From positions 186,001 through 250,000 of the forward strand of contig NW_026515682.1 of NCBI RefSeq assembly GCF_025526975.1: 64,000 nt of DNA. The letters run 5' to 3'. The notes below the pieces were generated by a model that saw only the letters and a program-made list of their open reading frames with translations, did no database searches and was not told the DNA's origin. The stretch comes from Fimicolochytrium jonesii. Its lineage: Eukaryota. Position 1 is the first letter of the stretch; each line of letters opens with the position of its first letter. Of the stretch, positions 3,647 to 40,519 are shown piece after piece. The position numbers and the translations under genes were made by a program.

Positions 3647-3770
3647 CAGTCAGTTCGCAAAAAGCTGTGCACCCCCCCTCCAAATAAATCAGCGACTGCC
3701 GCAACGCCAAATTCACGTGAGTGACCGAACATTGATTTCATTTAGAGGGGGTGCACAGCTTTTTGCGAAC
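3647..3770. mobile_element. Tc1/mariner-like MITE with damaged right end
   Basis: TA|CAGTCAGTTCGCAAAAAGCTGTGCACCCCC at the left. The inverted copy GGGGGTGCACAGCTTTTTGCGAAC ends at 3770, and the outer ~6 bp plus TA are missing on the right. The TIR start resembles the MITE at 5325-5451. Confidence 0.8.
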
Positions 3771-4144: not shown

Positions 4145-4350
4145 GACCGAAGCAAGAAGTGGAATTGTCACTACAATTGGTAAGCGGTGGTTATTGTTTC
4201 CCTTCCTTCGAACATCGCTGACAATGACAACGGACCCTCAGGTATTGTCAGCTTGCATCGTTGCCATTCAGCGAAGCATCCCGCGAGTACAATGTCCATT
4301 TTCTGGTTACAAGCAATCGAATGTCGCCGCTGGAAATGGGTTCTGCAATG
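4145..4350 (+). pseudogene. Spliced fragment of a CACTA/Plavaka-related (DDTSGNxSKKWN-type) transposase
   Basis: Exons 4145-4179 and 4242-4350, joined across intron 4180-4241 (GTAAGC...GCTGAC...CAG), give DRSKKWNCHYNWYCQLASLPFSEASREYNVHFLVTSNRMSPLEMGSAM. This matches the recalled motif SKKWNxH...LAxLP...EYNxHFLxTSN...LE. Confidence 0.6.
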
Positions 4351-4375
4351 GTAAGCACACAGTGGATGCCGCCTT

Positions 4376-5610
4376 GTGATTACCTCAGTTCTACTTCGAC
4401 CCAAAGCTAACGAGTCTCTCAAGAAGCACTTTGTCACCTGCAACCCCTCGCGCATGCCCAAACGCCTTCGTCACTTGAAGAACACGCCATGTTCGGTGCG
4501 GGAGGCCGTGATGCAAGAGCTTGCAAAGGCGTATGAGGTGCAATTTAAGCGGCACAGAGAGACGGGTCAATTCACAACACTGGCCTTTCGCGTCAAGAGT
4601 CCGAGGTGGGCGATCACCATTCCGCCCGCAAATTGGAGCGGCAAGCAAGGCATGCGCTGGCAGTGTTACACCACCCTCCTGCCCGGGCAAGGAAAGTTGC
4701 GCTTCCGCAAGCGCGACAAGCGACGTGTGCTTGACCGATGCCCGAACGGCCCGGAGGGCGAGGTCAAGGTCGTTCACAACAGCGGCACAGGCAAGTGGTT
4801 CATGCATGTGCCAAACTACAAGCCGGTGAGGAACTTGGACCGGGAAGCACGAGGCCACTTGGTTGCCCTCGACCCAGGTCAAACCCCTTCATCAACTACT
4901 ATTCGCCTACCCGCATGGAGTCCGGCTCCTTTGGCACACCACACGACCCGATCCGGCTGCGCGAGTATCACCAGGGCATCGACCACATCAGCTCTGTCAT
5001 GGACTCCGACTACCACTCTCCCGCCGAGACGAGGGCCCTTCGCCGCCGCCGATTTCTCATTCACGAGCGCATCCAGAACCGCGTGCGCGAATGCCATCTC
5101 CGGGTGGCCGGTTGGCTGACGCGAAACTTTCAGTTCGTACACACCTCGCCGTTTGAGACGGAGGAGATGATGCGCCGAGTGGGAGAGAACGGCCGCAAAC
5201 GCCGCATCGGTCGTAAGACGGCACGAGAGTTGCTCATGTGGCGACATGCGCCCTTCCGCCGCGCGCTGCAAATGCGCCAAGAGGAGTTGCGGGGGACGTT
5301 GGTTGAGATCGCCGGCGAAGAGTACAGTCAGGTAGCAAAAAGCTGTCTCTCCTGGAGATTAAGTCAGTGCCGCCGACGCGTCTCTCCGCCCTGTGGTGGA
5401 ACGGTCATTAACTTCAATTAGAAGGAGAGACAGCTTTTTGCTACCTGACTGTAGACGACGTTGACCTGCGACCGATGCGGCCTCATTCAAGCCCGCGTGG
5501 ATGGGAAGTTGTTCAGATGCACGACGTGCGGCCACCGAGTGCATAGGGATGTTCCTGGGGCTCGCAACCACGCACTCAAGAACTGTGTTGACAAATACGT
5601 TTGGCTTTAA
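4376..5610 (+). pseudogene. Fanzor2 (IS607-TnpB-like RNA-guided RuvC nuclease); N-truncated, frameshifted and MITE-interrupted
   Basis: Motifs in order: LKNTPCSVREAVMQELAKAY; RuvC-I VALDPG(Q/N)PFINYYSP with a frameshift at ~4880; RIQNRVRECHLRVAGWLTRNF..SPFETEEM; KTARELLMWRHAPFRRAL; VEIAGEE. After removing the MITE: TTLTCDRCG...FRCTTCG..HRDVPGARN, with stop at 5608-5610. Confidence 0.9.
5325..5451. mobile_element. 127-bp MITE with perfect 29-bp TIRs and TA target duplication, inserted in the Fanzor gene
   Basis: CAGTCAGGTAGCAAAAAGCTGTCTCTCCT (5325-5353) and AGGAGAGACAGCTTTTTGCTACCTGACTG (5423-5451). TA at 5323-5324 and at 5452-5453. Confidence 0.95.
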
Positions 5611-6366: not shown

Positions 6367-8078
6367 ATGTATCTTCGTGTGGTTCCTGGTGCTTTCTCGG
6401 TAAGGCACACATCGTTAGCAGGAGATGGGCCCCATCGCCTGGTCCATAGGTGGGGGAAACTCGCTCATCAGCAAATTCTTTTCATCTCAACAGCTCCTTA
6501 CCCGCCGCTCTGCGACGACCGGAGTCAATGCCATTCGCTCCTACTCTACCGCTAAGAGCCAGGTATGTCCAGCAGACCTTCTGCAGGATGGAAGTCTTCA
6601 GATCCATCGTACTCACCCACCTCCATTTTCCCACCACAGACTCTTAAGGAGCGTCTGAGTGAGCTCATCCCCCAAAAGCAGGCCGAGGTCAAGGAGTTCC
6701 GATCCAAGCATGGCAGCAAGGTTCTCGGAGAGACCACCGTTGACATGGTTAGTACTTGGACGTTGAAGAGATCGTGGAGTCGGGATCGTGCGTCTCATTT
6801 GAATATCTCACTATCAGATGTACGGAGGCATGCGCGGTATTAAGGGTCTCGTCTGGGAAGGTTCCGTCTTGGACGCTGACGAGGGTATCCGTTTCCGTGG
6901 CTACACCATTCCCGAGTGCCAGAAGCTTCTCCCCGCTGCCGAGGGAGGTGAGGAGCCTCTCCCTGAGGCCCTCTTCTGGTTGTTGGTGACCGGAGAAGTC
7001 CCCACCGCTGAGCAGGTCAAGCAGCTCTCCGCCGACTGGGCTGCCCGCTCTGCGATTCCATCATACGTTGAGGACCTCCTCGACCGTTGCCCCAACACCC
7101 TCCACCCCATGTCCCAGTTCGCTCTCGCCGTCACTGCCCTTCAACACGAGTCTAGCTTCGCCAAGGCTTACCAGAGCGGAGTTCCCAAGACCCAATACTG
7201 GGACTATACTTTCGAGGATGCTAACGACTTGATCGCCAAGCTTCCCAACGTCGCTGCCCGTATCTACCGTAACGTCTTCAAGGATGGCAAGGTCCCCGAA
7301 ATCGACCGCAACCTCGACTGGGGAGCCAACTTCGCTCACCTTCTCGGCTACAAGGACCCCAAGTTCGTTGAACTGATGCGTCTGTACCTCACCATCCACT
7401 CCGACCACGAGGGAGGAAACGTCTCCGCCCACGCTACCCACTTGGTCGGATCTGCCCTCTCTGACCCATACCTGTCTTTCGCTGCCGGTATGGCCGGTTT
7501 GGCCGGTCCCCTGCACGGTCTTGCCAACCAGGAAGTCCTCCGATGGACCCTGAAGATGCGCGACCAGGTTGGCCAGGGCGCAACTGACGAGCAGATCAAA
7601 GAATTCCTCTGGAAGACGTTGAAGAGCGGTCAGGTCGTCCCCGGTTACGGACACGCTGTGCTCAGGAAGACCGACCCCCGTTACACTTGCCAACGGGAGT
7701 TTGCTCTCAAGCACCTGCCCGATGACCCTCTCTTCAAGCTTGTTGGTCAGGTTTACAACATTGCCCCCGGAGTTCTCACCGAGCACGGCAAGACCAAGAA
7801 CCCATGGCCCAACGTTGACGCCCACTCTGGCGTTCTTCTGCAGCACTTCGGCTTCGTCGAGCAGGACTTCTACACGGTTCTGTTCGGTGTCTCCCGTGCT
7901 CTTGGTGTGATGAACGGTCTCATCTGGGACCGTGCCCTCGGACTCCCCATCGAGAGGTAAGGTCTTTTCGAATTTCCAATCTTCATGTTTCATTAGATAC
8001 TCACAACTGTTTCCCTCAATTTCCAGGCCAAAGTCCTTCAGCACCGCGCACCTCCAGAAGATGTTCGCCAACAAGTAA
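6367..8078 (+). CDS. CIT1: Mitochondrial citrate synthase (5 exons)
   Basis: [39 protein letters not shown] and [11 protein letters not shown] motifs. Basic presequence in exons 1-2, and the last exon ends [16 protein letters not shown]. Confidence 0.97.
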
Positions 8079-9099
8079 GCTATCGAGCTCTCTTGAGTAG
8101 GACCTTCTGTTTATTCCCCCCATCCGACCCGTTTGTGGCATCAGCATACCATACACTGCTCCTAGAGTAAAACTCATTTTGTGCCATCCCTCATCTTCTT
8201 TATCGAGTATATAATATTCCCGTTGACCTGACTCATGCATGCTGTGATACAACCTGTGAACTTATGACCCGCATCAAGAGCTTGGCGCCGGGAAGGTGCT
8301 CTACGTTGCGACTAGCACATCCCCCGTGAGGCTTTCTCCAGGTCGGTCGATTGCTGTTCGTCTGCTGACTTCTGACCGCAGGGAGGCCCTCCTTGCACAT
8401 GAGTTTCCGGGATGCTTTTTTTGATTACATATGCCATTCCTTTATGGCTTTCGGTGAACGTCATTGGATGAGGAGATATACGGTGTATCTTTTGAGAACG
8501 ATCTCACATACTGTACATGCGCCGAATCTCTCTGCGACACGTAGTGGCCTCACGGACAGCTCATGCTGTCGGCCATACGAGTCTGAGGCGAAAACGAGGC
8601 TTGCGCCTCTTGTACTGTACCTTATTCAGGGCCCCTTAGTCAGCAGCGAATGTAAAATGCGACACCGTGACATCTAAATTGACAGGCGTCTGCTCGGAGT
8701 TACTCATATTTGGTGCCACTGGATAAACTGTCATTTCGAAGCACCAGGCGGTCAGGCAGAGATAGTAAGCTCAGACAACGGTAGTTTCAGTTTGAGAATA
8801 CTTTTCTTTCCACGCCACCATCCTGTGAAGCCAAATTAGCTGCTTCCGTTTTGGTCACCGGCTTTACGAAGGACAATTCTAGAGACTGATAGCTCAACGG
8901 AGGTTGCCACTCGCATAGATGGGGAAGAAGAAAGAGGTTCCTCGTGAGTAAGAGGTGAATGGAAGCTTATGAACAGCACAGGCTAATGCACAGAATCCTG
9001 TTATACAAAAGCGAGCGAAGCTCCCCAAGCAGCACCTCCAGGTTAACCTACTTTTCAAAACATATTCGCACCTGAAGATTGGAAAACTAACACCTCTGC

Positions 9100-12000
9100 G
9101 AGAGTAGAACCGAAGCAATCATCCGGCTTCTCATTCTTCAAAGGCAAGAAGAAGAATGGATCGAACAACACCCCCGAAGTCTCGGCTCGCTCGCTCCCCA
9201 GAGACAGCAACACTAATCCACCGAACGACAACTCCAATTCGGGACCTTATCAGCAAGGTCCCTATGCTGGCCCCAACGATCCCAATCAGCCGTACGGGTA
9301 TGGGTACGAATATGGATATGACCCTAGATATCCCCCTCCTCCCGGTGAAAACGGACCGCCGGGAGGCCCTCCGCCGCAGATGATGGGAGGTGACCCCAAC
9401 TATGATCGGAACGGAGGATACAACGGTCCTGCGGCGGATACCCCAGTGCAGCAGACCGGCCCACCACCACCCGACAACCGCCCGCCAGTAGATTTTGACT
9501 GGCGTTCACAGGCCAGGTTCGAGCAACTGGGCCCGAACCAACAGCCGCAGAGTCCGTTTGGAGACCCGAGTCGTGCAAAGGTGCCGTTTGACCCGGACCA
9601 GCCGATTCGTGGAGGCAAGATGGGTTTGGGAGCGATTGATGAGAGTGGGCAGGCGCTTGCGGAGGAGGGGTCGCCGGATGATAGGTTTAGGGAGCATCCG
9701 GGGGCATCTGACCATCATGTAGGGACTTTGCATTTTAGAGAGAGCAACATCGAGGCTGAATTTACTGATGCGGTCCGTTTAGGTTCCGCCAAAGAAGAAG
9801 CCACTTGCTGCGAAGAAACCGGTCAAAGCCGAGCCGAAGCCGGAGAGTGAACCTGTAGAGGCGCCGCCCGTGGCGAGCAAACTGCCGGCGAAAAAGGGCA
9901 GACAGCCTTCCGAGCCGGTTGCGGCGGCCACACCGGAGCCGGAATCAAAGGCGGCAAAGCCGTGGGATAATAAGAAGGCTACTCCTGTGCATCGTCCATC
10001 AGTGTTGGATGAGCCAAAAGCGGAAGAAGCATCGCTCGTAAATGCTAAGCTGCCAAAGCATTTACAGGGCAAACTAGACCGGCAGAAGAAGCAAGCCGAG
10101 GCGGCTCCTGGGCCTGCCAAAGACGTCGCGCTCCCGGATGTAGCAGCGTACCATGATGCAGCTACCCCGGATGTAGAAGCGGAGCCTGCGTCAAAGCATA
10201 GGGCAAAACCTCCCGTCAGGGCCCCAGCTGTTGCTGCCAAGCTGCCACCCACGGAATCGATGAGCAAACCTCGTGCTCGATCCCCTTCCAGCAACGCTCC
10301 GCAACGCAAAGCGCCGTCGCCAATCAATCTCCCTCGACCTCGCAGCTCGACCAAACGGCGCGTCTTCTTTCCCAAATCACGCATCCCGACTCTCAAAGCC
10401 CGCCGCCAGCAACAGCAACTTCAACGCCGCGGTCTTGCGTTCCAGCCCGACCAAATGCTAGATACTCTGCAGACCCTCGCCGCGAATCACGCGAAAGTCA
10501 GCGACTCGATCGTTGCCACGTACGGACCGCGGCAGCAGGCGCCTGGGTATCGCAAGGCCAGCGAGGCGATCTTGTCGATTCCGAGTATGCCACTCGAGCA
10601 GAAGGTGATGATGTTGTCTGAGCGGTTGGACGAAGAGGAGGAGGAAGTGAGGAAGTTGCATACGGAGAAGACTGAGTATGGGCGGCAGGTCGTGTCGTTG
10701 AGGAAACGGATGCAGAGGGAGGTTGAGAGGTCCAAGCCGTTACCCAAGGTCATCACTATGGTGCCGCCTAGCGTTGAGGTGAGGGAATGAGACCGAATAA
10801 CGAACAGTAGCTGCATTATGAAGGATTAATGAGCTATTCCCCGCCATCAGGCCAATCTGAACCTCCGATACCAATTCAAAAGATTGGTGGACCACGAACG
10901 AGAGAAGACGCAGAAGTTCGCAGAAGAGAACAAGCACTTGACTGCCCGCGTCAAGGAACTGGAAGCAAAACGTAAGTCCTCTCTACATGGCCCGGATTAA
11001 TCGGGCGGCGCACTCTTTACACAGGCCCCTTCCCCTTCCGTATAGAAAACGCGACCAAACACCCGCCCTCATCCGCTTCCAACTCGCACCGCAACAACGA
11101 GATCGTCTCCTTGCGCAAGCGTCTTCGGGAGTCCGAGACAGAGAAGCGTCGACTGGAGGAACTCGTGCACAAAGTGCAATCCCAACTAGCGAAAGAATCA
11201 AAGGAGAAAGAGAAGATCGACAAGGATCGGGAAGCGATGCGGCAGCAGTTCACTCATCTGCGAGGAATGGATCTGGAGGTTGGGATGGATTCAACAGCGG
11301 CAGGGCTTGGAGGGGTGTTAAGTCGGAGGGCGTCAGCAAGGTTGGATGTGGAGCAGGATGTGAAGAGGCGGGCTCCGGTGAAAAAACTGGGAGATGGATT
11401 GCGACACCAGGCGAAACCAGCAGGGGATGAAAGGCAGCCGGAGGACGAGCTGGCTGGACCGTCGACGCAGTTGGCAGAACAGAGGAAAGGCGCGGGTGAG
11501 CTTGGGAAAGCGCAGAATGAACGTACCGTCGCCGGAAAGCCTGTGCGAAAGCCCGTGGTCCATGCAAGGAGCCAGGTGGTGAGTTAACGTGGCTGGGCAA
11601 TGCGCTGTGATGGACCGAAACCAATGCCATCTATCCCGTAGCCTGCGCAACCTTCCTCGAATGCAGCAGAGGATCCAACCCAGGAAGGACATACAGAGGA
11701 GCCGTAAGTGCGCAACTCAAGACATTGGTGTGTGTTTTACATATCTTATTTTCTTTTTCTTTTGTGGGAAGACGTAAGCCGCAGCGGTCGGCAAAACGAC
11801 CGAAAGCTAAGCAGTAAGCACTTGTTTGAAGAGAAAAGATGCGTCAGTGGAGTACGCTGGTCGGTTATGAACTCAACGCACTCTATTTTCAGGGACAGGG
11901 ATGGTGAGCAGGACGAGGACCAGTCGACCGGAAGCAAAGGAGACCTAGCTGGAGACGGCAAAGGGTGAGCTCAGTAAAATGCGCATCAAATCGGAAACTC

Positions 12001-17182: not shown

Positions 17183-17256
17183 AAGGGTGCAGTTTAGTGG
17201 GTTTTGCCAACGTTAAGCCAACGTTAAGTTGGGAAAACCCACTAAACTGCACCCTT
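17183..17256. mobile_element. Short foldback element / MITE-like palindrome
   Basis: AAGGGTGCAGTTTAGTGGGTTTT (17183-17205) is perfectly inverted at 17234-17256. Internal tandem CCAACGTTAAG x2. No clean TSD. Confidence 0.65.
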
Positions 17257-35716: not shown

Positions 35717-38700
35717 TGTTGAGGGAGTGGTGAAAGGGGCGGCAAAGCGTGAACACTGTGGAGAGGTGGGCCTAGTTTTCAACGCCAAGCGCGATCGAGT
35801 GTAAACCACCGCAGTTTGGGCAGTTGATCGCGAGACACCCCTGTGTGTATATATGCTGCTGCAGCTGCTCTACGTTCTGGCTTCCGGGAGCTGTGGGATC
35901 AGCAAGAGTGTTGCGGTGTGTTTGGAGAGGTTGTGTGCTTTTCTGCGTCCTTGGCCCTTTTGCTTCGTTGCCGTTTTCGCCCCACAGCGCGCGCACTGGC
36001 TGGGAGAGCAGAGCGAGCGGCTTCACCTGCAAATCCAAATCCCATGGGCAAGAAAGCGCGTCAACGGGTATATCCCCACTTCCACTTTTGGTGGTTCTTA
36101 CATAGTATTAGAGACGCTAGTAGCATGCGTCATAGCTGAGAACACACAAGTCCTCTCCTCCCTGCTCACTGGCTGGAAACTAATTATTTGACGCGTCGGG
36201 CGCGTCGCTCTACCGATGCCGAGGAGTTGAATTGGAACATCGAGTCGGACAGACGGAGAGGGAGGGGAGTGCCTGGCGTCACCTGGGCGAGGAGGTCTTG
36301 CATCTCATCAGACTGAACGACTCACTGACCTCACAGGGCCCAAAGGGAACGCCGCGGGAGCAATGCTTTGTCCCGGGGGGATTGTCCATATGGGAAACTT
36401 GCAGGGGCCTCAGGTTCATATTCTACTTGACTGCCGACGCAACCATCCAATGTTCTCCGCCTCCCTAGCAGCATCTGGATGTGCTTCGGTGGACAGTGGA
36501 AGTAAGAAATGCAATCATATCATTGGTCAATACGCCGATTCGCCAAGTGCTCTTCACGGGAAAGGGAACGACAGCGGCCTTCTTCGCCATAAGCTATCGA
36601 TTTTCGAGCTTCATCTCCCATGACGCGTGATACGTATTATCCAGTGAAGGGATATTCCCCGCTCAACATGCCTCCCCTTTGGCGCTCAGATATGGTGAAT
36701 AGCCCTCCCCACGGTTTTAGGCTGATTACGGTAGGGGGTTCAGATTTACCTCCGTCGTGCTCCATTCCTGCCCTATCTTCAAGGGACATCCAAGGGCTGG
36801 ATGTCGTGCAGGACAAGGGATGCAAAACCCAAGCTGGTGACGGGAGTCATGCAGCCACCCTTCGCGGTGTTCCCCCGCGACCGTAAGGGCCTGCTTAGGT
36901 CCACCCTGGCTAAGCCACTGACAGCTTTTTGACGACTTTTGGACTTAACGAGGTTTTCGCAGACCCAAAGTTGCTGCACATGTTGAGCAGTATCTTGACA
37001 GCCAGACATGCTAGCAGAAAGATTGATTAGGCAGTTTGGTGAAGAAGGCACTGGTTCAGGGTTTGACACCTCTAACTGGCAAGTTTTACCCAAAAACGGC
37101 CAAGGAAAGACAGTTTTACTACTCAGACTTTTGGGCCTCTGCGTTAAGTTTGTTGCAACAGCTACCCCCACAGACACTTAGAGGGGATTGGCCAAAGTAG
37201 GCAACTGGAGCCGTATGCAAATGGAATAGGTTGTCCTGCATGTCTGTGGGATGGTATGGCTGCTCAAAAAAGAGGGTTTTGTGAGGAAACTGCTTTAATT
37301 TCCCTAATTGTGCCTTAAGGTAACGCGTAGAGCGTTTGGGTGGCGCAGCCAGGGTGGACCTGAGAGGGCCTGCCTGCAGTGCCTGGTCTCTCTCATTCGG
37401 GTTGTTCGCCTGCAGCTACGCGCGTTGGACGAGAGATCCCGTCCAGGACCGCTCATAGTCGTCCCACTCCTCCGCCGTCCTGACATGCCCCTAGCCTTGT
37501 TCAAAGTCGCACGCACGCACGCTATCGACTAGGCCAGGTAACGTCGGGAAGCAGTCCGGGTCGGCCTCCAACACTTCCTGTGCAGCCGTAGATGGCGACG
37601 TCGTCTTTTATCGCCCAACAGGACAATCCACCACGTAGCAATCCACGCACGTTGTTCTGGTAAGTGACAAGTCGAGTTCGGGTCAAGCAGTCGTGCCGAC
37701 TTAGAGCTGGTGGCAGCTATTCCACAGAGCCTACGGAGTAGCGCTAAGTGTAAATGGGAGCGAGAGGATGCTCGGCGTAATCCTATGGCTTAAAAACCTC
37801 GAAGTCTTTCACGGAGGTGTTGGCCCGTCGATGTTCTATGGGAAAGCAGCATGCAGTCCGTGAAGCGCCAGTATGGCGAGCGCACTCGTGTAGCGGAGTT
37901 CTTGCTCACCACACTGGATGAGGGTGGTATGGGGGGCTGCCACGGCGTCGAGATTAGCTACGGGGAATCGATCGGTGGTGCGACTGCTACAGCCTGGGGA
38001 CAGGAAGGTCCGCCGAAGTTCCCCAGTGGCTCGAGGTCTTGACCAGGGGGGTGGGATCCCATGGAAACCTGAGTGGTAGCTCATTTGCACGGGAGCCACG
38101 ACTTCGAGCCATACTGTACTGTAGATCTAGGGAAATGCTAAAACGACACTGGGTGTAGCCAGTTTAGAACGACACCCCTTCTGAGGCCTCGCCGGCAGCT
38201 AAAACGACCCCTCTTATAGCCCGAGACCTCTTTTGCAATTGAAGACAAGTTACACCCACATACAATCATGGCCTTGGCGTTTAACAGAAATTGTGACACT
38301 AAATATGACAGTGATAGCCTACAGTGACTAAGGGTTGAGCCTAACCCTTGACGAGATCCATTTGAGAGGGCGCTGAGATGTGGGAAGGGCACTGCCGGTT
38401 TGACTTCATGTGCCCTGTCGAAGGCAGCCGAGCGGCACGGCACGTCAGTGCGGGGCGCATGGTTCTCCTTCCCACTTCCGCTTTGAATGCCTGGATATCC
38501 GCAATTGTTGGTCACAATACAGCTCTGGAAGGACTCGCCAATTGGATGTGTGTTTACCTCCGAGAGAGGAATTTTCAATGCAGTCAAACCACTGCGAGGC
38601 CGCCCCAATGCAGTCAGCCTCAAGCGAGTGATGGCAAGTTGCAGTTTCATTGCAAAAAGCGTGGCAATTGCAAAACGGATCTTGCGACGCTCTTTCGCGA

Positions 38701-38820: not shown

Positions 38821-40519
38821 TTAAACCACCCTATACCTAACTCTATCCGCCGCCACCAAATACACCTTTCCCGCCCCCTCAGCGGGTGTAGGATGGTACC
38901 CCACCGGCCCGACATCGCAGTCGGCGCAGGAGAGGTACCTCGTCGACGACGAGTTGGAGCCTGGTACGGGTTTCGTGAAGCCGATGTTTTCAAAGGCCAT
39001 CATGTCCGAGACGGACCAGTTGTAGGTTGGGGCGAGGGAGTGTTTGGTAGGAGATTGGGTGGGGATGAGGGGAAGTTCGACCTGGTTTGAGGGGAGGGCA
39101 TTTTGGGGTTTGTGAGTGAATGCTACAAAGAGTCGGAGGGGCCCCCCATGCGCTGTACACCGGTAGGATTGTATGCATTGATACGCAAAATGTTTGCTTA
39201 CCGCAGTCTGATGGTCCACCTTCTGGGCCACCCCCTTCTTCAAAATAAGGGATTTACAGCTCGGGCAGTGAACATTGAACGCATTTGTGCCCTCAGCAGT
39301 CACCAGCTGGGTCTTAGCCGCCTCCATATACGTCGTAAACTCGTTGGCCCCTGTAGCCACTGCCGTAGACGGGGTGCCCGAGGCAGCGTCAGCAAAGATG
39401 ATCCTCTCCAATTCCGCAGCGGCGGCGTCTACGTCGCTGCCGTTGACGATGATGGCGTCGTAGGGCGAGGGGGTGGAGTGGGCGTAGTCTAGCGCTGCTT
39501 GGGCGGAGGCGATGCGGGCGGCGAGAGATTCTGGAGTTTCGGATTTGCGGTTTTCGAGGCGGGAGCGGAGCTCTTCAATTGAGGGTGGCTTTTTGAGTGC
39601 AGAAGGTATGTCAGCTAGAGCAGAAGCCCGGGATTGAGATGCGCCGTCGATTGCATTGAACTCACAGCGATAAAGATGCACAAGCAAGGAATTCCCGAGT
39701 TCTTCATCGACTTGACACCATTCAGCTCCAGATCTAAAATAATGCGTTTTTGCGGCTTGCCCGCGTCCGCCTCCGATGGGGACGGGTTGATAGACTTGAA
39801 GGGCGTGCCGTACATGTTGCCGGAGAACTCGGCGTGCTCGATGAGCTCGCCGCGCTCGATCATGGCTTTGAACTCGTCGCGGGTGATGTAGTGATATGAC
39901 ACTCCAGGTGTCTGTAGACATGTGGATGGCATCAGCACCCTGTTGAAATCCGCACATCGTCCTCAAACTCAACAGCGTTCCGTTGCGGCACTCTCAATTA
40001 TCTGCCTCCAGTTCCCTCCCAATTCCAGAAATAACAGATCGCCTCCTCTCTCACCAAAGCCCTTACACAACCCATACCTCTCCAGCCCGCGGCTGCCGCG
40101 TCGTACCTGCCAAACCCAAAAAGCAGTCAGTCCCTTTCACTCCCAAACCGCGCGCAACCTCCGCCACACCACTCACATGAAACGCTAAACTTGAAGCTAT
40201 CCGGATACTTCTCAAACAACCTAGTAAAACAGACAGGGCATCAATCTCAAATCCAATTCTCGGACTCCTCCTTCACCAAACTTACTTGTTGAGCAACGTG
40301 CTAGGAGAGGCAAAGATCAGGACGCGTTAGTATCCAGCTCATCGACTCCCATCGCGCCACCACCACCATAACCACCACTGCATCCCCATCCCATTCACAC
40401 ACAACACGACCCCGCCCGTTGCGTCCCACAGACATTCCCACCTCCTACCTCTTCCCAGTCCCACTAGGTCCAGACATGACAATCGGACGGCCCGCGGAAA
40501 TAGGCGGTGTTGGAGGCAT
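38821..40519 (-). CDS. Guanylate kinase fused to a C-terminal Mss4/RABIF domain
   Basis: P-loop SGPSGTGK|STLL, FSVS.TTRQPRAGE, EHAEFSGNMYGT and PPSIEELRSRL. The same exon continues into CPSCKSLIL. The last exon has DMMAFENIGFTK..YLSCADCDVGPVG. Confidence 0.88.

Follow-up and report, generated by a model that had tools for sequence, protein, structure and literature searches.

Fanzor RNA-guided nucleases of class 1 and class 2 share a DPG motif and a Glu displaced toward the C terminus, as described by Yoon et al. (PMC10711439). Jiang et al. describe the canonical RuvC-II Glu as replaced by Pro or Gly in Fanzor and pro-Fanzor proteins, and they treat an HTH domain as a Fanzor2 feature. In the mimivirus enzyme ApmFz2, Gly416 is reported at the old RuvC-II site. 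Fanzor2 in fungi has been reported several times. Table 1 of Bao and Jurka (PMC3627910) lists four yeast families (Ashbya, Eremothecium, Saccharomyces EC1118, and Torulaspora), Saito et al. (PMC10432273) describe Fz2 as widespread among fungi and include Rhizophagus, and Table S5 of Yoon et al. (PMC10711439) holds a Borealophlyctis protein, KAJ3297308.1, that came from a Fanzor2-type pattern search. An earlier note on the DNA analyzed here had implied that Fanzor2 is rare in fungi, and these three reports contradict it. Within the part of Saito's table that was counted, the chytrid rows (19 rows across five genera) are all Fz1, and 7 further Synchytrium rows lie outside that count.

We analyzed 64,000 nucleotides of contig NW_026515682.1 (“the window”) from Fimicolochytrium jonesii, a soil chytrid of the Powellomycetaceae. 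We are confident that the window holds a broken and likely recently killed Fanzor2 RNA-guided nuclease gene, which lies between ordinary chytrid genes and belongs to a distinct lineage. The locus is flanked by an SH3-domain gene and a citrate synthase gene, and the same fungal region also carries TOR, Rad1, Ariadne, and MCM genes. Separately, one stop-free frame at 38824-39993 on the minus strand matches both guanylate kinase (weakly) and Mss4 and may be two close genes or a fusion. The features of the locus are collected in Table 1.

Table 1. Features at and around the Fanzor2 locus, in window positions
Feature	Position	Strand	Remarks
Second, related MITE	3647..3770	.	Upstream; right end without outermost bases and TA
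Possible scrap of lost N-terminal half (FSEASREYN...SNRMS)	4267..4326	+	Right order, wrong spacing
Public 199-aa “uncharacterized protein” model (P0001)	4321..5421	+	Exons 4321-4350, 4424-4537, 4966-5421
Fanzor2 piece 1: REC/WED region to RuvC-I	4391..4879	+	Homology to relatives
Fanzor2 piece 2: bridge helix and RuvC-II	4880..5324	+	After 1-nt deletion at 4879/4880
127-bp MITE	5325..5451	.	Perfect 29-nt inverted repeats; TA at 5323-5324 and 5452-5453
Fanzor2 piece 3: C4 zinc finger and RuvC-III	5455..5610	+	PF07282, E 1e-08; NF040570, E 1.6e-4

Three pieces, together spanning 4391-5610, were colinear end to end with TnpB-like proteins of 513 to 548 aa. The read-through of these pieces, with X at the breaks, comprises 363 residues and is 42 to 45% identical to its best five relatives. 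When the full-length relatives P0151, P0153, and P0157 were searched against the locus with tblastn, pieces 1 to 3 were all covered, in order, with E values of 1e-73 to 5e-75 and a 43-codon gap at the MITE. Such a colinear match lies far outside what chance would give. Piece 1 was 46% identical over 167 aa to residues 162 to 327 of P0183, and piece 3 alone matched PF07282 (TnpB zinc-ribbon) better than the curated cut-off. The proposal that the three pieces join into one TnpB-like protein was therefore borne out by the full-length relatives and the PF07282 match. Pieces 1 and 2 alone gave no Pfam match and nothing significant in the PDB. When piece 2 was searched exhaustively against proteins, 570 matched at E ≤ 0.001, and 150 of these were listed. 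The locus also contains the TnpB/Fanzor superfamily pattern of Bao and Jurka, D-X(125,275)-[TS][TS]-X-X-C4 zinc finger-X(5,50)-RD.

Every motif quoted in the earlier note was present in frames 2 and 1. Frame 2 reads ...TPCSVREAVMQELAKAYE...VALDPG through piece 1 and ends at 4879. Frame 1 gives NPFINYYSP...HLRVAGWL...SPFET...KTARELLMWRH...VEIAGEE in piece 2 and, past the insertion, TTLTCDRCG...FRCTTCG...HRDVPGARN in piece 3, which closes with a natural TAA stop at 5608-5610. The D/E/D codons are intact, as had been claimed: the catalytic Asp of DPG (RuvC-I) is encoded at 4871-4873, the shifted catalytic Glu at 5317-5319, and the RuvC-III Asp at 5548-5550.

We counted four internal or terminal lesions, namely, the loss of about 160 N-terminal residues, a 1-nt deletion, the MITE, and a stop at the MITE junction. 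That the copy is dead and lacks its N terminus was confirmed, with homology beginning at residue ~160 of relatives of 520 to 550 aa. The gene itself was correctly located, but homology begins at about 4391-4400 and not at 4376. Similarly, the 1-nt deletion is real, but the lineage motif DPGSNP places the missing base at 4879/4880 instead of near 4882. The insertion was also correctly recognized, but excision of 5325-5453 does not give a clean repair. The insertion interrupts the codon for the Tyr of E-x-Y-T-T, and TA plus the G at 5454 would read TAG, leaving an in-frame stop where relatives have Tyr. This stop is a third internal lesion that the earlier note missed. With a frameshift immediately behind its first catalytic Asp, and with the Glu split from the zinc finger by the MITE, the copy cannot function, and it makes no nuclease.

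Including the TA, the arms of the inserted MITE are 31 nt long and 100% complementary (5323-5353 and 5423-5453). From its ends, this MITE is putatively Tc1/mariner-like. The few lesions and the perfect MITE arms suggest that the gene probably died recently. The upstream MITE is related but diverged and lies 1.7 kb away. Matches to the MITE terminal sequence in the 64 kb amounted to 3 ends versus 0 expected, all from these two MITEs. Elsewhere in the window, a near-perfect 29-nt inverted repeat with a 16-nt spacer at 17183-17256 may be a tiny MITE or hairpin element, and 31-nt inverted repeats (84%) lying 421 nt apart at 36888-37370 may mark an older non-autonomous transposon.

The lost N-terminal domain and HTH were found nowhere in the 64 kb by a profile search of six frames. 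A frameshift-tolerant search for the lost N terminus scored 25.1, compared to 25.5 ± 3.3 in 56 control stretches and 305 for the positive control. The possible scrap listed in Table 1 was a post hoc pick and was absent from this unbiased search. For the four column ranges tried, 0, 4, 14, and 47 of 366 control windows scored equally well, and we regard the scrap as a weak hint only. No second copy of the Fanzor2 gene was found in the window. As a separate observation, broken members tend to resume near the FVTC motif with the HTH region lost (F. jonesii at 4391 and a copy at 7794-9095 on contig L015, with P0159 starting there too), in three cases only.

To define the active site, we aligned 23 rows of the lineage with four bacterial-type TnpBs and 84 further Fanzor2-like rows. 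In the canonical RuvC-II column, Ser was found in 22 of the 23 lineage rows, Pro in 79 of the 84 other Fanzor2-like rows, and Glu in all four TnpBs. Two residues before this column, His was found in 23/23 lineage rows, while the six commonest residues at that position in the other rows do not include His. The F. jonesii copy reads H-T-S-P-F at 5140-5154, with its Ser (5146-5148) in the canonical Glu column. A Pro had been assigned to the RuvC-II Glu site, but Ser occupies it in both the F. jonesii copy and the lineage, and the Pro is the next residue, where it is unconserved (4/23 lineage rows). The D, P, E, and D residues were invariant in all 23 rows. Compared with the Pro or Gly substitute described by Jiang et al., the Glu is lost here as well, but Ser stands in its place. 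The functional feature is the loss of the Glu, not the identity of the substitute.

In a tree of 38 chosen rows, the lineage comprised 26 rows on a long stem with support of 100/100, and the F. jonesii copy was sister to two Geranomyces variabilis fragments (100/97). A 106-row tree was built by a quick method from rows that a RuvC-to-zinc-finger filter kept out of 174 proteins plus the locus ORFs, with P0093 dropped. There, the lineage held 18 of the 106 rows with an SH-aLRT of 99. Eight members are named to species, every one of them partial, and their sources are the four chytrids Fimicolochytrium, Geranomyces, Borealophlyctis, and Phlyctochytrium arcticum. P. arcticum appears on two separate branches of the lineage in the 38-row tree. 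Full-length members, 513 to 548 aa long with the full motif set, make up 11 of the 23 aligned rows; they are metagenomic, none is named to species, and two are near-duplicates. The contigs that encode full-length members measure 53 kb for P0151, 56 kb for P0183, 101 kb for P0153, and 234 kb for P0013. Neither the viral collection nor the prokaryote collection (185,579 species) contained a single stretch with the lineage motif. Against the viral collection, piece 2 gave one weak 30-residue match (L001), and the lineage profile found 13 loci whose long matches had 22 to 29% identity. Where such loci were placed in the tree, they all lay outside the lineage. Two of the viral loci (L002 and L003) are copies of a more distant Fanzor2 on one 148-kb contig, and their number and the long tandem repeats flanking them suggest recent mobility of that element.

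Tests independent of the active-site motifs favor the Fanzor2 class. A lineage profile built from 11 relatives was searched against the PDB, and its best match was the mimivirus Fanzor2 (9b0l; E 4e-31) over profile positions 16 to 490, including the N-terminal domain, with the next matches at E 5e-11. A predicted model of P0151, whose mean pLDDT of 57 is low, also ranked 9b0l 1st (E 2e-14), and its named top matches in the viral library were giant-virus “transposases.” HTH_OrfB_IS605 was found in 9 of the 11 relatives scanned (one below the cut-off), the other two being without that region. The Fanzor2 architecture of HTH, TnpB-like part, and N-terminal extension is thus present in intact relatives, and the region is deleted in the F. 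jonesii copy. The zinc finger of the lineage is compact (CxxC-x13-CxxC). These data uphold the Fanzor2 call, with the mimivirus Fanzor2 as the best solved relative by both sequence and fold, an HTH in the relatives, and a short zinc finger. The grounds first given for the call do not discriminate. DPG and the Glu six residues before the zinc finger are present in the read-through and in 23/23 lineage rows, but both are common to Fanzor1 and Fanzor2, and the read-through fits both patterns of Yoon et al.

The locus might instead be a Fanzor1, like SpuFz1 and the large family tabulated for F. jonesii. The shared DPG and shifted Glu would allow this, as would the match to Yoon's Fanzor1 pattern, and our trees contained no named Fanzor1 or Fanzor2 reference; in them, the locus grouped with proteins that have the rearranged site and are either unnamed or encoded on giant-virus contigs. 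However, no Fanzor1 entry appeared among the 28 PDB matches of the lineage profile at E ≤ 1, SpuFz1 ranked only 45th by fold (E 3.6e-3), an HTH is present, and the compact finger differs from the long-looped finger of Fanzor1 rows in Yoon's table. A Fanzor1 identity is therefore largely refuted, and we give it very little weight. A bacterial TnpB, present as contamination or by fresh transfer, is less probable still. Piece 2 has look-alikes in the Atlas that score 0.92 to 0.94 and are fragments of bacterial TnpB. Against this, the motif is absent from the prokaryote collection, a host MITE sits within the gene, fungal genes lie on both sides, and the four aligned bacterial-type TnpBs keep the canonical Glu and fall outside the lineage. 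Together, these findings refute a bacterial origin.

Two further readings concern what became of the gene in its host. The spliced translation of the public 199-aa model is exactly P0001, and it could be read as a genuine gene that the host domesticated from the remains of the Fanzor. Its first intron does have a GTAAGC donor and a GCTAAC branch-like site. Yet this intron overlaps nuclease-homologous residues, the second jumps the frameshift exactly, and the model ends in MITE sequence. Moreover, the model drops RuvC-I and the zinc finger and had no orthologue in cluster and word-index searches. Domestication is thus quite improbable, and the model, whose splicing bridges the frameshift and whose last exon extends into the MITE, is likely an annotation artefact. 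Somewhat less improbable, but still unlikely, is the earlier note's inference that the locus is a dead member of a chromosomal transposon family (IS607-like or a TIR-borne Fanzor2*) that is still active and has intact copies in the same genome. Few lesions in 356 codons and the perfect MITE arms point to a recent death, Geranomyces has two related fragments and Borealophlyctis three, and broken or unannotated copies would be invisible to protein databases. On the other hand, a word index of 5.8 billion clusters held no close copy at 267 to 2000 aa or at 108 to 345 aa besides the locus's own model, and the 90% cluster of P0001 has 1 member. A piece 2 word-index search for longer proteins gave 0 of 330 candidates; this search misses 40% relatives and speaks to close copies only. 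Yoon's table, with 33 rows for F. jonesii, does not contain the lineage motif, and all species-named members of the lineage are partial. Nor did the locus show a TnpA, flanking inverted repeats beyond the two MITEs, or a second copy in the 64 kb. An active family in F. jonesii is unsupported rather than refuted, and unannotated copies may exist. By eye, at least 32 of the 33 F. jonesii rows belong to one unrelated, SpuFz1-like (Fanzor1-like) family. Both Fanzor classes have thus met in this genome, as a SpuFz1-like family (33 rows in Yoon et al. Table S2) and as the Fanzor2 ruin.

Returning to the Fanzor2 reading, the intact ancestor would have been a protein of ~520 to 550 aa. By analogy to characterized Fanzor2 enzymes, it would bind an omega-RNA transcribed from the 3' end of the element, recognize a short motif next to its target, and use the rearranged D/E/D site to cleave double-stranded DNA. 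Such cutting may favor retention of the element at insertion sites. Intact members of the lineage are likewise predicted to be omega-RNA-guided, motif-dependent DNA cutters, on the model of ApmFz2 (PMC11832414). At the two loci folded, the 3' region was no better than shuffles (z of +1.63 in F. jonesii and −1.01 in L015), Rfam gave no match, and the downstream DNA of F. jonesii and L015 did not align (score of 20 versus a shuffled mean of 21.8). Synonymous identity between the two genes rose somewhat toward the stop, from 14/58 and 19/55 identical codons in the earlier parts to 9/18 over the final 25 positions, which is too few to call. Neither an omega-RNA nor an end of the element could be placed by comparing these two loci. 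No TnpA was found by Pfam in the 32 upstream and downstream frames scanned around the locus; the serine-recombinase TnpA of an IS607 element, if once present, could have been lost with the 5' deletion. Around this gene, analyzed in one copy whose 5' end is deleted, terminal inverted repeats or a target-site duplication were not found besides the two MITEs.

We then considered how the lineage reached chytrid chromosomes. Contig L015 carries a lineage Fanzor2 (7794-9095) that is 85% identical to intact P0162, with residues 45 to 164 lost and one stop, and no adjacent TnpA. The contig is gene dense, and near the Fanzor2 lie a divergent family-B polymerase, Pif1, a dNMP kinase-nucleotidase fusion, ribonucleotide reductase, and Fic. 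The nearest cluster of the kinase-nucleotidase is mostly viral. In the viral collection, the kinase had no relatives, the polymerase had no close ones, and Pif1 had 54 distant relatives (28 to 40%). The ribonucleotide reductase (9254-11780, minus strand) is of eukaryote type and has three GT-AG introns with fungal-style branch sites, as judged by eye; the contig is otherwise intron poor and virus-like. The giant-virus promoter motif AAAATTGA was not enriched, with 1 seen versus 1.56 expected. From its gene content, L015 is probably a giant-virus fragment, likely with a fungal host. The Fic-domain gene on this contig (12782-14562) lies within perfect 20-nt inverted repeats 1.7 kb apart, possibly a Fic-carrying mobile element.

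F. jonesii itself keeps a remnant giant-virus capsid gene (Myers et al., PMC13533422 and PMC12247965), in reports whose main text does not mention Fanzor or TnpB. Giant viruses of zoosporic fungi may have carried the lineage into chytrid chromosomes, a route that we consider about as likely as not. Such entry, if it occurred, would explain a lone copy without a transposase. The relative beside virus-type genes on L015, the capsid remnant in the host species, and the two branches in P. arcticum speak for this route. Against it, the evidence comes from one contig, the lineage motif is missing from the viral collection, the promoter motif is not enriched in L015, and the node joining the F. jonesii branch to the L015 branch has a modest support of 88/92. 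In addition, the closest relatives of the F. jonesii copy belong to its own fungal family, as descent within the host would also predict. More tentatively, and with somewhat less than an even chance of being right, the locus may be a chromosomal fossil of an uncatalogued Fanzor2 lineage that lives mainly in chytrid giant viruses and has repeatedly been dropped into host chromosomes, dying there. If so, it would directly record fungal giant viruses at work as a vector that brings RNA-guided nucleases to early-diverging fungi, and the 11 full-length members would supply a new set of compact editors.

The locus itself is what remains of an enzyme whose class is known and had already been reported from fungi. 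What is new is modest, a well-supported lineage, with a Ser/His signature, that motif searches did not find in three published Fanzor tables. DPGSNP and DPGANP were absent from the supplements of Yoon et al., of Saito et al. (readable files), and of Jiang et al. (seemingly cluster representatives without species names), and the four accessions searched were absent from Yoon's supplement. A literature search found no publication on the lineage, and IS607 with chytrid returned 0. Protein-based surveys apparently missed the lineage because every copy in a named genome is broken. Its natural full-length members are available for assay without rebuilding a consensus, and the lineage suggests a connection, open to testing, between the spread of Fanzor and the giant viruses recently reported from zoosporic fungi.

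Among known systems, the fungal Fanzor2 proteins already tabulated share class and kingdom with the F. jonesii copy and include at least one chytrid case, but the Borealophlyctis and Rhizophagus proteins have the usual Pro-x-Phe motif, unlike the lineage. SpuFz1, the Fanzor1 of Spizellomyces punctatus, comes from the same fungal order and has DPG and the shifted Glu, but it shows no sequence match to the lineage, a distant fold rank (45), no HTH-type N-terminus match, and a different zinc-finger spacing. Fanzor2*, which Yoon et al. describe on TIR transposons of molluscs and Chloropicon, is likewise without an adjacent IS607 TnpA; however, no TIRs or target-site duplication were found at the F. 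jonesii locus, where the two MITEs are separate insertions. The closest described enzyme is ApmFz2 (protein L79 of Acanthamoeba polyphaga mimivirus; PDB 9B0L; Schargel et al., PMC11832414). As reported, it resembles the lineage in its N-terminal extension, HTH, DPG, and RD of RuvC-III, in a shifted Glu six residues before the C4 finger, and in length (520 versus 513 to 548 aa). The two differ at the old RuvC-II site, where ApmFz2 has Gly416 and the lineage has Ser after an invariant His, and their identity in the structural alignment is only 17%. ApmFz2 is also reported to reside in an IS607 element that carries TnpA and to have a known omega-RNA; no counterpart of either was found at the F. 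jonesii locus, whose copy is dead.
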